Shown here: positions 4,899 to 47,679 of the stretch, piece by piece
How positions within the stretch are numbered: position 1 is the stretch's first letter
Layout of the letters: each line of letters begins with the position of its first letter
NCBI GenBank assembly: GCA_013815775.1
Contig: JACDFN010000001.1
Location: forward strand, 173,883 to 237,882
From: Candidatus Saccharimonadota bacterium
Lineage (GTDB): Bacteria > Patescibacteriota > Saccharimonadia > Saccharimonadales > UBA10212
Length of the DNA stretch: 64,000 nucleotides
Reading direction: 5' to 3'
Position numbers and translations under genes: made by a program
The notes under the pieces: model-generated
Seen by the model: the letters and a program-made list of their open reading frames with translations, nothing else
Told to the model about the DNA's origin: nothing
Databases searched by the model: none

Positions 4899-4975
4899 GC
4901 GCCCGTAGCTCAGCGGATTAGAGTACTTGGCTTCGAACCAAGGGGTCGCAGGTTCGAATCCTGCCGGGCGTACCA
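4899..4975 (+). tRNA. tRNA-Arg (anticodon TCG), CCA encoded
   Basis: Folds by hand as a 77-nt cloverleaf: acceptor GCGCCCG/CGGGCGT (one G-U), D arm GCTC-AGCGGATTA-GAGT, anticodon arm CTTGG-CTTCGAA-CCAAG, and T arm GCAGG-TTCGAAT-CCTGC, ending A-CCA. Confidence 0.9.
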
Positions 4976-4981
4976 AATATT

Positions 4982-5611
4982 ATGCAAGTTACTATTTTCG
5001 GGGCGAATGGGAAGGTGGGTAGCTTGGTTGTTGCCGAGCTGCTTAAACGAGGCTATAGGGTGAACGCTTTCATTCACAGCAGTTCAAGTTTCACACCCAG
5101 CTCCATGCTACATCTTATTAAGGGGACTATTTATAACGAAGCGGACATCTCAACTGCGTTAAAAGACACTGACGCTGTAATAAGTACCTTGGGTAGCTGG
5201 GGCACGCCGAATAAAGATATCTTAACATCTGGAATGAAGCATATTATTCCAGCCATGAAGTCCAAGGGCATCCAAAGAATCATTACTCTAACCGGGGCAG
5301 ATGCAAGAGTCGAAGAAGACCAAAGTAGCATTATTCATAATTTTACTCATTTTGGGATTAGCCTTGTTGCTGAAAAAGTAATACAGGACGCCGAGCAGCA
5401 TATTAGCCTGCTGCAAACAAGTAATCTTGAGTGGACAACGCTGCGTTCTCCCATCATGATCGAGGGTGGTTCTAGCTCATTCAAACTTACGAATAAACGG
5501 CCTGCCCCCTGGACTACTGTTAACCGACATGCTGTGGTATTGGCTATGGTTAATATGATTAATGACAAGAGCTATCTAAATCAAGCCCCTTTTATCGTCA
5601 GGACTGGTTAG
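4982..5611 (+). CDS. NAD(P)-binding Rossmann-fold protein (NmrA/atypical SDR-like)
   Basis: 209 aa with an N-terminal GxxGxxG motif (IFGANGKVGSLVVAELLKRGYRV). Confidence 0.7.
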   Translation: MQVTIFGANGKVGSLVVAELLKRGYRVNAFIHSSSSFTPSSMLHLIKGTIYNEADISTALKDTDAVISTLGSWGTPNKDILTSGMKHIIPAMKSKGIQRIITLTGADARVEEDQSSIIHNFTHFGISLVAEKVIQDAEQHISLLQTSNLEWTTLRSPIMIEGGSSSFKLTNKRPAPWTTVNRHAVVLAMVNMINDKSYLNQAPFIVRTG

Positions 5612-7594: not shown

Positions 7595-7671
7595 GGGCCT
7601 GTAGCTCAGTTGGTTAGAGCAGTGGCCTCTTAAGCCGCGTGTCGAGGGTTCGAATCCCTCCAGGCCCTCCA
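7595..7671 (+). tRNA. tRNA-Lys (anticodon CTT), CCA encoded
   Basis: 77-nt cloverleaf: acceptor GGGCCTG/CAGGCCC, D arm GCTC-AGTTGGTTA-GAGC, anticodon arm GTGGC-CTCTTAA-GCCGC, and T arm GAGGG-TTCGAAT-CCCTC, ending T-CCA. Confidence 0.9.
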
Positions 7672-22128: not shown

Positions 22129-24255
22129 ATGTTTAATATTTATATTTGGGTTAGTGCGGCACTAGCATTGGTATTTATTATTCTGGGTATAGTTGTTGTT
22201 ACTCGGAATGCACACTCAAGGATAAATCGAATTTTTCTAGCCTTTAGTATCCTTATTGCTGGTTGGCTTGTAACCAATTACATCGGAGGGGATAAGAATA
22301 TTTCTCCTACATTGGCCCTCATTGATAACCGGTTGGTGTTTGTTTTTGGCATTCTAACTGCGTTCTCTCTCATGCTATTTATGAAGAATCTAGTTTCTTT
22401 AAAAGGCAATAATTTGTGGAATGGGTTAATAGTAGCCAATATTCTTACGGCTGCTACTTGTTTTACACCTCTTATCGTAAAAGAGGTAGAGCGAAATGTA
22501 GACACTTATACTATTATTTTTGGTCCATTATCTTCTATTTACTTCTTACTTCTTATAGTGAATTTACTCGCATCAGTAAGTATAGCAATTCTTGCTCGTC
22601 GGAAGGCAAGAGGACCAGTGAAGCCCCAAGTTGATACAATACTTGCAAGCTTGGCGATAACTCTTGGAGCTGTGATTATCACCAATGGGTTACTCCCTTT
22701 TCTTTTTAATTTTTACGCACTCGTTAATGCAGGCTCGTTTTTTACGACCATTCTTGTTACCGGCATTGCCTATAGCATGATAAGGCACAAGTTGTTTGAT
22801 ATCAGAACTTTTGCGGTTCGGGCTTTCGCTTATTCACTCACTTTTGCCGCCGCCTCTCTGATCTACATGGTGCCTACGTTCTTACTTACAGCTTATATAG
22901 CTGGTCGCACTATAGACTTTTCCACTTTAATATTGCTGGTCCCGGTTACGCTGATAACGGCTTTCTACTTTCAGCCTCTGAAAACTTACTTTAACCGGGC
23001 AACTGGAAAACTTTTCTTTCGAGATTACTATGAAGCCCAAGATGTCCTCGATAAATTAAGCAGTCTGCTGGTGGGAAGTGTTGAGGTAAAGCAGATTGAA
23101 AAAGAAAGTTCATTAATTCTAAAGAATGCTCTTAAGCCAGACTTTCTTAGATATTTATTAATAGCTGAGAACCAGGACGATGATTCGAATGAAATTTTAG
23201 CGATTTTAAGAAAAATCAACGATGATATGGTTGTTTTCGATGAACTAGACCCAGTCAAAGGTATTAAAATACGTGAGCTTTTCAGCAAGAATGATGTTTC
23301 TCTTGCAGTACGCCTACGCACCCAGCATGAAGAACTTGGCTATATGTTGCTTGGTTTTAAGCAATCAGGCTCGGCATATTCGGGAAACGATAAGAAGCTG
23401 TTAAGGATAGTAGCTGACGAAGTCGCCGTAGGACTGCAAAGTGCACTTCGGTTTGAAGAGATTTCGCAGTTTAACCTTACGCTACAGGCTAAAATTGAAG
23501 ATGCTACGCAGGAGATTCGAAAAGCTAACATCAAGCTCAGGGAGTTGGATAAGACTAAAGACGAGTTTATTAGCATGGCCAGCCACCAGCTTAGAACCCC
23601 ATTAACTGCCGTAAAGGGCTACTTAAGTATGGTGCTGGAAGAGGATACCGGTAAAATTAAGAAAGAGCAGAGGGACCTGCTACAACGGTCTTTTGATGGC
23701 GCCGACAGAATGGTTTACCTGATAGCCGACCTGCTAAACGTTTCGCGTTTGCAAAGCGGCAAGTTTGTTATAGAGAATAAGCCAACCGATTTGGTGAAGA
23801 TTGTATCAGCGGAAGTGGATCAGCTACAGGAGTCGGCAGCTAACCACCAGATTAAACTTTCGTTCCATAAGCCAGATAAATTTCCCGAGAGAGTACTTCT
23901 TGACGAGACCAAAATCCACCAGGTGGTGATGAACTTTATGGACAACGCCATTTATTACACTCCCGCAGGAGGAAGTGTGGAGGTGGCCCTTTCGTCTACC
24001 GATAAGGAGATAATCTATACAGTAACCGACACAGGTTTAGGAGTACCAAAAGCTGAGCAGCATCATTTGTTTGCAAAATTCTACCGGGCCGGCAATGCTC
24101 GTAAAATGCGGCCTGACGGGACCGGGTTAGGGCTTTATATGGCCAAAAAAGTAATAATTGCCCAGGGCGGAGCAGTTATCTTTAAAAGTACAGAAGGCAA
24201 GGGGAGTGTTTTTGGGTTCAGCTTTCCGCTGCACAAGATTGAAGTAAAAAGTTAG
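22129..24255 (+). CDS. Polytopic membrane sensor histidine kinase
   Basis: 708 aa. The N-terminal ~290 aa hold ~8 hydrophobic helices, followed by a cytoplasmic linker or GAF-like region and a coiled coil. H-box SMASHQLRTPLTAVKGY, N-box MNFMDNAIYYT, G2 GTGLGLYMAKK. It starts 27 nt after the ThiF-like gene. Confidence 0.85.
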   Translation: MFNIYIWVSAALALVFIILGIVVVTRNAHSRINRIFLAFSILIAGWLVTNYIGGDKNISPTLALIDNRLVFVFGILTAFSLMLFMKNLVSLKGNNLWNGLIVANILTAATCFTPLIVKEVERNVDTYTIIFGPLSSIYFLLLIVNLLASVSIAILARRKARGPVKPQVDTILASLAITLGAVIITNGLLPFLFNFYALVNAGSFFTTILVTGIAYSMIRHKLFDIRTFAVRAFAYSLTFAAASLIYMVPTFLLTAYIAGRTIDFSTLILLVPVTLITAFYFQPLKTYFNRATGKLFFRDYYEAQDVLDKLSSLLVGSVEVKQIEKESSLILKNALKPDFLRYLLIAENQDDDSNEILAILRKINDDMVVFDELDPVKGIKIRELFSKNDVSLAVRLRTQHEELGYMLLGFKQSGSAYSGNDKKLLRIVADEVAVGLQSALRFEEISQFNLTLQAKIEDATQEIRKANIKLRELDKTKDEFISMASHQLRTPLTAVKGYLSMVLEEDTGKIKKEQRDLLQRSFDGADRMVYLIADLLNVSRLQSGKFVIENKPTDLVKIVSAEVDQLQESAANHQIKLSFHKPDKFPERVLLDETKIHQVVMNFMDNAIYYTPAGGSVEVALSSTDKEIIYTVTDTGLGVPKAEQHHLFAKFYRAGNARKMRPDGTGLGLYMAKKVIIAQGGAVIFKSTEGKGSVFGFSFPLHKIEVKS

Positions 24256-24262
24256 AGCTTTC

Positions 24263-24291
24263 TTGTCTGCAAAATTAACGAAGAGTATAAT
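24263..24291 (+). promoter_or_regulatory. Sigma70-type promoter TTGTCT-17 nt-TATAAT driving the large ncRNA
   Basis: -35 at 24263-24268 and -10 at 24286-24291, with exactly 17 nt between them. It lies 8 nt after the kinase stop. Confidence 0.6.
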
Positions 24292-24297
24292 TTTAGA

Positions 24298-25077
24298 CAT
24301 CAAGGTTGTGCGCTTGCAGGTTTAACCCCCCTTGCCCTTTAAAAACGAGAGATTTGCAAAGAACGGCAGGGTGCAGAGCAGAAGCTCGGCTTAATACCCC
24401 CGCCAGAATGTGCCAGCCAAAGCAGTTCATCAAACCGCCAGCCGGCGCATCGTCCATGGGAGTCACCAATCACACCAACAATCATCCTTGGTGAAGAGGT
24501 GACAGCGGTGACTCCCAAACGTTTAAAGCAACTTGCTTCTTTAAGCGAGTGCTTAAGTCCCGCCCTGGGCCAGGTCTTTGATGGGACCTGAGAGGAATAG
24601 AGGCCAACGCCGCAGTGTTGTCTCGAACTCCCAGATCCCGGGGCGGTATAACCGACGTCCATAACTATTATGGCGTCACCACTAGGCTGCTGCTGCAAGG
24701 CGAGCGCGCGGCAGCCGAACCCCTTCGGGCAGCGCTTAGAGGGCTACCCCTCTGCGCTCCCGGCGGGTGAAAGTATATGGAACCTAGTTCCACAACTTTT
24801 TCTACAAGATCCGCTACCTGGCCACCCCCCCAGGTAACGGAAGGGGAAGCGGGTCCAAAACCCCCGCTTACTTCGGCTACAACCGGACATCGGCTGGAGT
24901 AAGGCTTGAAGGACTTGTTATCGTTGCTCGAGCAGTGTAACCCCCCCTCGCGCCGCTCGCGACTTAAGTCCTTCAGGCCTTCCCTGACTAACGATGCCTG
25001 CCAAATGGACGAGGATGAAAAAGCAAATCTCTCGCTTTCCCTTAAATTTTAACCACTCCACCAACACGGTGGTTTTT
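24298..25077 (+). ncRNA. Large (~780 nt) GC-rich structured non-coding RNA, class unassigned
   Basis: It has no credible ORF and lies between a promoter (24263-24291) and an intrinsic terminator (CCACC-AACAC-GGTGG-T5, 25058-25077). Local GC is ~60% (36/60 in each of two lines counted). A 12-bp closing helix pairs 24346-24357 with 25023-25034. A nested helix pairs 24451-24457 with 25005-25011. A 16-bp helix pairs 24901-24916 with 24966-24981, and a 9-bp helix pairs 24458-24466 with 24508-24516. Confidence 0.7.
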
Positions 25078-25582
25078 AATTTCATTTAAAACGCTTGTGC
25101 TATAGAATTATAATGGTATAGCTTATTGACAATATTGACTGCATATGGTAAAGTTATGGCATCCTCGCTTCTAGGCGAAGGGGTGCAAAAACCCTCTAAC
25201 AGGGGTGAACAATTACATCTGTTGACATCTGTTAGACCTAAGCGGGTGAGGCGTAGTCTTAACAAATTGATTTTGGAAGAAAATATAGTTTGTTTTAAAG
25301 CACATTGTCCTTGTTGGACAGTAGTGTAAAAGCAGGCTAGATAGTCATGGGTCTTTAAAGTAGAGCTGCAAATATAGCCTAGAAGCCTAGCAGTTCCTTT
25401 TAGCCCATACAACCGACAACGAAATTATTAGCCGCGCAGGGTTTTCGATGTCGTTCGGTGCATTAAGACGATAAGACTTTGTCGTTTTTATGCATCGTGC
25501 GACTAGCACGAAAAGCCCCTGCGACGGCCGCACGGCGCCAAGCCGTCGCAGGGAACTACTAGACCACCAGGAGGTGGAAGAA

Positions 25583-26755
25583 ATGACTCGGATTACCCGG
25601 GTGCTCATCATGGCCGCCGTCCTGGCGGCTATGAGTTCCGTTCTTCCCGGTATCGCTCACGCGGCGGCACCGGCAACCCAAGCGAGTCCGACCGCAACAA
25701 CCGCGTCGGACTGCGGATCTCCGGCCTACAACAAGCAGCAGTGGCTGCAAGGCTGGAAGGATCGTCCCGCACTCGCTCGTAGCGCAGAGGCTTGGGCACG
25801 CGCCCACTCGCGCTACACGCACATCAAGGCCGACCAGGGCTTCATGTCCTGGGCAAATCAGCCGCAGATTCAGGTCGTTTCGACGCCCAGGAACTACGTG
25901 CTGAGTACGAACACCTACTGCCCTGGCGGGCAGGGATTCTTCGACTACAAGTCGAAGCTCTCGCACGGCGGACAGAAGGTGATCGCTTGGTGCACGGTTT
26001 CCAAGTCGCTCAAGAAGGGTTACGGCTTCAGCCGGACGACCTACACGAAGACCTGCGTTCCGCTCGTCAAGAGCTACTGCAGGAATCTCGTGACGGGCAA
26101 GCCCTTCAAGATCGTCTGGACCGTCTCCAAGAAGACACCGGCCAAGCCGGCACCCCCCAAGCCGAACCCGCCAGTGGCGGTTCCGCCCGGGAGCTGCAAT
26201 GCGATCAACTCCCCCGGAGCGGTCGTCTGCAGTTCGTTCTACGTGATCGTCACGTGCGGCGGCGCGCAGATCAGCATCAACGGAAGCACCAAGGAGGAAG
26301 CGGAACAGAAGGCGAGCCAGTACGTGGCGAATAACTGCAATACGAGCTCGCCGGCTCCACCGCCTGTCGTGGTGAATCCACCTGCTCCGCCGCCTGTCTG
26401 CCCCCCGGGCACGACAGGTACTCCGCCGAACTGTCAGTACCCGCCCCCCCCGCCTCCGGCCAACCGGCCGCCGATGGTGACGATCGAGAATCCTCCGGCG
26501 CACGTGTGCGTCAATGGACGGTTCGAGTTCCGAGCCAATTTCTCGGACCCGGACGGGGACAACCTGCAGGTCAGCTGGTCGGCGACCTACGGCACGATTT
26601 CCAGTGGCCGCGAACGCGCAACGTTCACAGCACCCGGATCGGCTGGTACAGCCAGTGTCACGGTCACGGTGTCGGACGGCAAGGAAAGCCGTTCGGCTAC
26701 AGTCTCCTTCCCAATTCGGGCGGAGGCTTGGCCTCCGACCCCGGAGACCTGCTGA
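25583..26755 (+). CDS. Secreted Pro-rich protein with C-terminal PKD/Ig-like domain, encoded in a high-GC insert
   Basis: GGAGG RBS at 25570-25574. Signal peptide MTRITRVLIMAAVLAAMSSVLPGIAHAAAP. Pro-rich linkers (PAKPAPPKPNPPVAVPP; PPAPPPVCPP...PPPPPPANRPP). C-terminal FRANFSDPDGDNLQVSWSATYG...TVTVSDG is PKD-like. GC is 62-77% in counted lines against 22-28% in the flanks. The ORF is open from 25490 but the upstream part has no support. Confidence 0.75.
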   Translation: MTRITRVLIMAAVLAAMSSVLPGIAHAAAPATQASPTATTASDCGSPAYNKQQWLQGWKDRPALARSAEAWARAHSRYTHIKADQGFMSWANQPQIQVVSTPRNYVLSTNTYCPGGQGFFDYKSKLSHGGQKVIAWCTVSKSLKKGYGFSRTTYTKTCVPLVKSYCRNLVTGKPFKIVWTVSKKTPAKPAPPKPNPPVAVPPGSCNAINSPGAVVCSSFYVIVTCGGAQISINGSTKEEAEQKASQYVANNCNTSSPAPPPVVVNPPAPPPVCPPGTTGTPPNCQYPPPPPPANRPPMVTIENPPAHVCVNGRFEFRANFSDPDGDNLQVSWSATYGTISSGRERATFTAPGSAGTASVTVTVSDGKESRSATVSFPIRAEAWPPTPETC

Positions 26756-28202: not shown

Positions 28203-28277
28203 GGTCCCATCGTCTAGCGGCTAGGACACCAGGTTTTCATCCTGGCAACAGGGGTTCGATTCCCCTTGGGATCACCA
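28203..28277 (+). tRNA. tRNA-Glu (anticodon TTC), CCA encoded
   Basis: 75-nt cloverleaf: acceptor GGTCCCA/TGGGATC, D arm GTCT-AGCGGCTA-GGAC, anticodon arm CCAGG-TTTTCAT-CCTGG, and T arm AGGGG-TTCGATT-CCCCT, ending A-CCA. Confidence 0.9.
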
Positions 28278-44090: not shown

Positions 44091-44482
44091 GGGGCTGAAT
44101 TTTAAGCTCGACGAAGGTACTTTACCAACTAGTTCGCAGGCCGCTTGTCAGCGTTATAGACAAACTACATTAGATGCAAAAACATCTTTTAGCGAAAAGT
44201 TAGCTGCTTTGAATCCGTTCAAACAGTTGGCCTACGCACCAGTTAGAGTTTAATTACTTCTAGCCGCGCCAAATGCGACACCAGATAGTGTTCACGGCGT
44301 GTCATATCATCTGGTTGCAGTAAGTTTATTGCCCATAAACTTACCTAAGAATTCGGGCTAAGAGATGTTGCTTTTTGGCCGTTTACCGGTAGCATTTACG
44401 AAAATTTTTAAGCGGCCTACGCCTGTAGAAGACTAGCTAGGTAAACCATCGGACGCGGGGGCGGTACCCGCCAGCTCCACCA
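44091..44482 (+). ncRNA. ssrA: tmRNA (SsrA)
   Basis: The 5' end reads GGGGCTGAATTTTAAGCTCGACG and the 3' end reads GGACGCGGGGGCGGTACCCGCCAGCTCCACCA. The acceptor stem GGGGCUG/CAGCUCC includes the G3-U pair and ends in ACCA. The 3' end is in register with the E. coli SsrA 3' end as I recall it (GGACGCGGGTTCAACTCCCGCCAGCTCCACCA). Candidate tag ORF: GCA at 44176 to TAA at 44251-44253 (AKTSFSEKLAALNPFKQLAYAPVRV). Confidence 0.8.
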
Positions 44483-47149: not shown

Positions 47150-47375
47150 TTCGCTAAGAAAAAACTTTTAGATTATCCAGAACTAGGTAAATTTTTTTTT
47201 ACGGAGTATAATAAGGGGTAATAAGCTGAATATGGTAACAGGTGAAGAGATCTAGGTAGCTGTAAAGAAGTGTAGAGCTACAACAGCTCAAGCAATATCA
47301 TAACGAAGGGGAAGCTATGTCAAAGGATAAGGGCAGAAAAGAAACTAAAAAAGCTAAAAAGGTTAAGGTCAAAGA

Positions 47376-47627
47376 ATGAATATTAAACATATCCAGCGGC
47401 CAGATAAGCCCAAGCACATGGATGAAGATGAAATTCGCCAAGCACTTACACTTATGGAATCGGACAGCACCCTTAAAACTAACCCTAGTTATATAAAAGA
47501 CACACAGGACTCCATAAATCTTCTACCTTTCCAAGAAAAACACATGACCTATTTAAAAGGTCACCCTAAGGTTAACCCTCAGCACTACCTCTCGAACTTG
47601 CGTACAATGATAAAAAAACGCATTTAA
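47376..47627 (+). CDS. Hypothetical protein (83 aa)
   Basis: ORF with no recognisable motif. Its ATG overlaps, as ATGA, the stop of a possible 20-aa Lys-rich upstream ORF (47317-47379). Confidence 0.45.
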   Translation: MNIKHIQRPDKPKHMDEDEIRQALTLMESDSTLKTNPSYIKDTQDSINLLPFQEKHMTYLKGHPKVNPQHYLSNLRTMIKKRI

Positions 47628-47679
47628 CGGCACGGTGTGATATATTGACTAATTACCTTGTTTATGTCATTGTATTATA

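Follow-up and report, generated by a model that had tools for sequence, protein, structure and literature searches.

The window (by which we mean the whole 64-kb stretch of DNA analysed here) is tightly packed with genes, and the locus of interest raises a simple question: what is encoded in its largest gap without an ORF, positions 24256–25582 (1.33 kb), where the annotation of the record calls no gene? Directly 5' of the gap, on the plus strand, is the gene for a 708-aa histidine kinase with a multi-pass membrane domain (7TM; stop at 24255). A ThiF-like gene accompanies the kinase on the same strand, and two single-domain response regulators lie farther 5', on the strand opposite to the kinase. 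The gene on the 3' side (25583–26755) encodes a proline-rich, secreted Big_9/PKD protein, and its GC content is ~60% as compared with 45% for the genome (60–75% in orthologues from syntenic loci); a 413-aa antisense ORF over this gene is probably a by-product of composition. One other ORF-free gap was seen in the window, of ~530 nt at 47150–47679, with no ORF of at least 120 aa.

An earlier note on this DNA had proposed that the gap holds a GC-rich, heavily base-paired non-coding RNA of ~780 nt, running from its own promoter to its own terminator and belonging to no known class. The comparisons and structure models below lead us to a probability of roughly 0.7 that the stretch is indeed the gene for a large structured non-coding RNA, from a family not yet described. 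To our knowledge, RNA genes of 600–1000 nt outside rRNA are rare in bacteria; the few large-RNA classes that have been described are structurally or mechanistically surprising. Genomes of the candidate phyla radiation (CPR) are small, and we know of almost nothing that has been established about CPR RNA biology.

The element begins 8 nt 3' of the kinase stop codon with a sigma-70-type promoter on the plus strand (24263–24291; 10/12 matches in a scan): a -35 box TTGTCT (24263–68), a 17-nt spacer and a -10 box TATAAT (24286–91). The same scan returned five promoter-like sites, as against 1.1 expected. Transcription is predicted to start near 24298, opening a 5' domain (24298–24345) delimited by family alignment and an nhmmer profile. 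This is followed by the 5' arm of a closing helix, P1 (CGAGAGAUUUGC, 24346–24357), which is the perfect 12-bp complement of the 3' arm (GCAAAUCUCUCG, 25023–25034); P1 is present in both the MFE and the centroid structures. Between the two arms lies a GC-rich, multi-hairpin body with 14 predicted hairpins (24358–25022). Single-sequence prediction places in this region two local helices, one of 11 bp (24457–67 with 24507–17) and one of 16 bp including a U·G pair (24901–16 with 24966–81), and a long-range helix of 8 bp (24450–57 with 25005–12). An intrinsic terminator, CCACC-AACAC-GGTGG-TTTTT, was found by scan at 25058–25077, on the same strand; its GC-rich stem of 5 bp encloses a 5-nt loop and is followed by a U-run.

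The earlier note had the coordinates and sequences of the promoter, terminator, helices and C-runs exactly right, including the perfect 12-bp helix and the single U·G pair in the 16-bp helix; the helices that it gave as 9 and 7 bp exist, but are 11 and 8 bp long. Its figure of ~60% GC was too high: the stretch is GC-rich, at 55% over 24298–25057 versus 45% for the whole window, and single 60-nt lines reach 62–70%. Its view that no ORF is credible agrees with our own. The longest ORF has 119 aa and is on the minus strand, a 62-aa ORF is on the plus strand, neither has a ribosome-binding site, and no coding signal is common to the related elements described below.

The stretch was compared with known RNA families, among them RNase P, tmRNA, group I and II introns, GOLLD, ROOL, OLE, raiA, HEARO and riboswitches. 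At gathering thresholds, Rfam 15 returned only a tmRNA (44091–44482, 72 bits) and three tRNA genes (4899–4972, 7595–7668 and 28203–28274) from the entire window, and only tRNAs from 14 homologous loci. When 24200–25600 was scanned at E<=10, the sole output was six matches at chance level (e.g., snoR12 at E = 0.38), and relaxing the cut-off to E<=5 for eight loci brought up no recurring family. Literature searches turned up no paper on an RNA of this kind from Saccharibacteria or the CPR. The claim that the RNA fits no known class is thus upheld, in the window and in homologous loci alike. Several specific identities were considered and rejected: (i) 6S RNA and a group II intron or HYER-type ribozyme, (ii) RNase P, no model of which matches even at E<=10, (iii) a retron, given that no reverse transcriptase is found among the Pfam families of genes within ±10 kb of the element, (iv) a MITE, since the sequence is single copy, with a self match only in the window and in one related locus (L001), and (v) a pseudogene, because no reading frame is conserved between homologous loci.

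Next to its lack of ORFs, the stretch stands out by the predicted strength of its fold. The plus strand has an MFE of -324 kcal/mol, compared with -255 ± 10 kcal/mol in shuffled sequences (z = -7.1; z = -8.6 for a slightly longer stretch). Similarly, 13 syntenic elements have z-scores of -6 to -16, while those of five control spacers are about 0. The core of the earlier description, an ORF-free, heavily base-paired RNA of ~780 nt with its own predicted promoter and terminator, is supported. The whole fold carries more weight than any single helix: 4 of 200 dinucleotide shuffles (2%) contain a perfect helix of at least 12 bp, and the element has three helices of at least 9 bp where 1.1 are expected.

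Related loci were fetched by synteny through homologues of the kinase (the nearest of which is 57% identical to that of the window), with a conserved promoter and leader downstream serving as landmark. In many Saccharibacteria the leader follows 5–130 nt past the kinase stop. In a subset of loci this distance is 550–1100 nt, and the intervening DNA is ORF-poor with 52–60% GC. About 17 further distinct Saccharimonadales loci show the same architecture at the same syntenic site (members, besides the window: L002/3, L004–6, L008, L013/L093, L015, L016, L020, L041, L046, L048, L064, L072, L085, L097, L100, L156 and L167–173). Some of these are nearly the same sequence—a single nt separates L004 from L005, and L167–L173 are identical—and hence carry no population-level information.

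In 16/17 of the related elements, the corresponding position a short way past the kinase stop holds a TATAAT-like -10 box. It is followed by a 5' domain of ~50 nt that forms, in single folds of most members, one extended 5'-terminal hairpin. Then come a UUGAGA/UUAACA-type anchor and an AU-rich P1 of 8–16 bp, whose partner is 355–820 nt downstream; body length accordingly varies ~2.3-fold among the securely assigned members. All of the related elements have a terminator hairpin with T-run 3' of the second P1 arm. Five members share a GAGAUUU core in P1: the window (CGAGAGAUUUGC), L004 (AUGAGAUUUA), L013 (AAGAUUUGC), and L168 and L008 (GAGAUUUAAG, GAGAUUAUAG).

The window copy shows the full set of proposed family features: synteny, -10 box, 5' domain, P1, GC-rich body and terminator. 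Its 5' domain corresponds in position to the family hairpin (consensus yGGUCAAAGUGAGG..CCGCCCUYAUYUUU), and the 5'-domain profile matches it at 24285–24360 with E = 0.0035, a value obtained with the window sequence in the nhmmer training set. The hairpin itself is weak in this copy (-6.2 kcal/mol, z = +0.9 in single folds). The parts that would define the family are the 5'-terminal hairpin domain, the UUGAGA/UUAACA-type anchor, P1 and the terminator hairpin, and the family appears, as far as sampled, to be restricted to one group of Saccharimonadales. Synteny and the end module together provide a precise handle for collecting more members.

The element is not present at this site in all close relatives. 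It is missing from L088, L151, L174 and L030; the kinase C-terminal domains of L088 and L151 are 69–71% identical to that of the window, and that of L174 is 78% identical to those of L168 and L020. Such absences indicate that the element is not universally required at this site, and the earlier note's expectation that the RNA is unlikely to be dispensable is not backed. In L088 and L151, the 104–134 nt after the kinase stop hold GUGAGC..CCGCCCCUCC followed by a terminator-like hairpin, recalling the 5' domain; this short spacer could be a minimal or deleted version of the element.

The relatives allow the closing helix to be examined comparatively. P1 was tested with a contiguous-helix score, comparing own with cross pairings of 5' and 3' windows from 16 elements, where the windows were set by landmarks only (TSS+25 to +125 for the 5' window, and from 200 to 30 nt ahead of the leader for the 3' window). 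The mean best-helix score was 25.9 for own pairs versus 20.3 ± 2.9 for cross pairs, and 0 of 200,000 permutations reached the observed mean; for seven of the 16 elements, the own pair came first in both row and column. Two other statistics were tried and set aside: duplex energy on 100–170-nt windows, which produced long gapped duplexes, was uninformative and was replaced by the contiguous-helix score, and a longest-helix test with G·U pairs allowed, which was swamped by A/U-rich runs and the shared P1 consensus. RNAalifold returned no consensus from MAFFT alignments of the end modules and the 5' domain, because the arms misalign, and the sampling turned up too few sequences at intermediate distance for a denser alignment. 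Comparison of the members indicates that P1 is co-evolving within each lineage. The proposed RNA has, then, syntenic homologues with a closing helix that appears to co-evolve, and of the helices listed in the earlier note it is this 12-bp helix that gains support from comparison, while the nested 8-bp helix (given as 7 bp), the 16-bp helix and the 11-bp helix (given as 9 bp) fall within an interior that cannot be aligned.

This interior behaves very differently from the ends. Kinase C-terminal domains of members are 58–79% identical, while the element interiors fail to align: blastn and nhmmer searches of the element against the syntenic loci matched only the downstream leader, with no alignable interior homologue, and comparing the elements with one another by blastn yielded nothing beyond short or identical matches. 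The sole alignable pair is L008 and L168 (kinases 78% identical). These two elements are 63% identical overall, with 90–95% identity over the first ~60 nt and the last ~70 nt, and the interior between is mosaic, with conserved blocks among hairpins that have been replaced. One core helix of 13 bp carries a G-C to A-U double substitution, and both sides have changed in 20 of 126 predicted pairs. The predicted core helices include GUUCUGGCGAAG / CUUCGCCAGAAC. The conserved core block of this pair, used as a profile, found nothing in the other members. The L008/L168 identities suggest that the ends of the element are under purifying selection, and the folds predicted for these divergent sequences suggest a body that stays strongly structured as its hairpins turn over fast, in the manner of expansion segments. 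The evolutionary signature is unusual: conservation of the promoter, 5' hairpin, end-to-end helix and terminator goes together with a body that is hypervariable and yet always strongly folded.

The best-supported reading is that of a stable, trans-acting structured RNA, with its partner and role proposed from the model. P1 would clamp the two RNA ends together, so that the 5' hairpin, P1 and terminator module bury both termini; such burial would make the transcript nuclease-resistant and long-lived. The conserved end module could serve as a recognition platform for a protein partner or processing enzyme, and the variable body could be a scaffold or decoy for which the precise sequence would matter little. 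The RNA would act in trans rather than on the neighbouring genes. A more daring extension, which we consider a long shot, is that the RNA represents a new large class in episymbiotic Saccharibacteria, with a body selected to stay folded while its sequence changes, as a decoy or effector in an arms race. Conserved ends combined with a fast-evolving, folded body would fit an arms race (with phage or with a high-GC actinobacterial host) better than a housekeeping scaffold. A blastn search against a phage collection gave no match, and a degenerate 5'-domain pattern gave 22 matches in viral contigs, equal to the chance expectation, none of which fits the profiles.

The large ornate bacterial RNAs GOLLD, ROOL and OLE were offered by the earlier note as a comparison. 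They resemble the element in being several hundred nucleotides long, running from promoter to terminator without an ORF, dense in structure, confined to particular lineages and, at discovery, of unknown function. The comparison holds for size and breaks down in the interior: in the ornate RNAs, conserved cores of sequence and tertiary structure extend along the whole length, whereas the element conserves its end module only and is hypervariable in between. GOLLD and ROOL are usually found beside tRNAs or prophage genes; the element occupies a fixed chromosomal site away from both.

Two further likenesses concern paired ends. In the msr-msd of retrons, terminal inverted repeats close a hypervariable, strongly hairpinned interior, much as the 8–16-bp P1 does in all members of the family; the element, unlike a retron, has no reverse-transcriptase gene within ±10 kb and is closed off from the next gene by a terminator of its own, and a typical msr-msd RNA is several times shorter than its body. 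We treat this likeness as an analogy only. RNase P RNA is, like the element, GC-rich and stable, with 5' and 3' ends paired in a P1, a multi-helix core and a variable periphery. The element differs from it in having no CR-I- or CR-V-type blocks (by eye), in its variable body length and in being absent at the site in close relatives.

A possible, if unlikely, refinement is that the element regulates as a sponge or as a multi-seed antisense RNA, in the manner of RNAIII of S. aureus or CsrB/RsmZ: its pyrimidine- or C-rich loops would capture an RNA-binding protein or Shine-Dalgarno regions, and the adjacent two-component system would control it. Such a role would refine the function within the preferred reading of a structured trans-acting RNA, and does not contradict it. 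A multi-hairpin, fast-evolving RNA does adjoin a histidine kinase and two response regulators here, and C-rich loops occur in many members (e.g., CCACCCCC and AACCCCCCCUC in the window). Across members, loops containing CCC number 23 versus 16.5 ± 3.1 in shuffles, and C-runs of at least 5 nt number 32 versus 21.6 ± 4.6; inside the closing helix of the window there are four such runs versus 1.2 expected. The recurrent C-runs pointed out earlier are exactly where they were placed, but the enrichment is weak (z about 2), and six members (L020, L046, L048, L156, L168 and L008) have no C-rich loops. Counting by eye, GGA appears in only a handful of ~200 predicted hairpin loops, and no conserved loop motif pointing to a function was found in the family. 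Furthermore, complementarity to the downstream leader and mRNA is not lineage-specific (own 26.7, cross 27.0). RNAIII and CsrB/RsmZ share with the element a fast-changing primary sequence and a persistent hairpin array, and RNAIII additionally has C-rich loops and lies beside a two-component (agr) locus. Unlike these RNAs, the element has no repeated conserved loop motif and no embedded peptide gene, and they lack the long closing helix that joins its two ends. The resemblance is a lead only.

We think it quite improbable that the element has no function as an RNA of its own and instead acts in cis as a structured 3' part of the kinase operon, be it a long 3' UTR or a terminator-insulator block. 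There is no terminator between the kinase stop and the element, making the element's terminator the first after the kinase operon, and the element always lies directly 5' of a strong, conserved promoter. However, a -35/-10 pair is kept at the 5' edge of the element in nearly all members, and in L008 and L168, where an extra 88-aa ORF separates the element from the kinase, the element retains its own TTGACA/TATAAT. Spacers of 5–130 nt evidently suffice in relatives, and so 700 nt of structure would be unnecessary for insulation; conservation of the 5' domain and P1 also exceeds that expected of a spacer.

A small ORF of 81–88 aa with its own TATAAT box is found either between kinase and element (L168, 4679–4945; L008, just past the kinase stop) or between kinase and leader (L174, 4750–4995; L059, just past the kinase stop), and is absent from the window.

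Could the conserved object be the DNA itself—a decayed, MITE-like mobile element with P1 as terminal inverted repeats, or a palindrome-rich site? Most of the helices consist of Watson-Crick pairs without a mismatch, and the minus strand of the window copy also folds well (-350 versus -324 kcal/mol on the plus strand), with strongly negative z-scores on both strands; energy alone hence leaves the strand undecided. Presence at the locus is patchy among relatives, and the element is GC-rich relative to the genome. Other features are strand-specific. GNRA and UNCG tetraloops number 14 of 63 on the plus strand compared with 3 of 67 on the minus strand, promoter and terminator lie on the plus strand in all members, unpaired positions are A-rich and G-poor, and the P1 wobble pairs of L016, L020, L048 and L085 read as G·U on the plus strand (strand-symmetric counts of G·U versus A·C wobbles comprised few events, picked up chance helices and were too noisy). 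Searching the window and ~1.3 Mb of related DNA with the 5'-domain profile gave matches at the syntenic site alone, and neither the window nor 22 kb of L001 yielded a second copy. This makes the element single-copy and strictly syntenic rather than a member of a repeat family; divergence among members tracks the host species, unlike what recent transposition would give, and no transposase was found among the neighbouring genes. A DNA-level element is, on balance, very unlikely.

That the stretch is a remnant or fast-evolving protein gene, or hosts a small protein, is scarcely credible: the 62-aa (plus) and 119-aa (minus) ORFs exist, and a gene caller placed a 153-aa minus-strand ORF inside the L004 element, but the 62-aa and 119-aa ORFs are neither preceded by ribosome-binding sites nor annotated in the record, the structure z-scores and end-to-end helix are unexpected for coding sequence, and protein similarity is not shared across elements in any frame (two marginal blastp matches among 230 stop-free frames from different elements, one of which reflects the L008/L168 nucleotide identity).

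Two observations concern the surroundings of the element. Firstly, the spacer of L128, ~55–95 nt past the kinase stop (near locus position 5190), contains a hammerhead-like core, CUGAUGAGUCCGAAAGGACGAAAGC, a candidate by sequence only. Secondly, the landmark downstream of the element, a conserved promoter and structured leader 5' of the GC-rich secreted-protein gene (25085–25580 in the window), is conspicuous in its own right. It matched in >25 loci, with E down to 1e-54 (nhmmer), and has no Rfam match in the window or in homologous loci. Its promoter motifs, GCTTGTG..TTGACA-17-TGGTAnAGT, start near 25085 in the window; the conserved blocks that follow are CAUCCUCGC..GCGAUGAGGUGGAAAUCUC, a variable hairpin and then GGCGGGUGAGGUG. 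This leader may be an undescribed cis-regulatory RNA: RNAalifold recovers 19 pairs, including a long-range CAUCC/GGGUG helix, and three of the pairs show compensatory changes.
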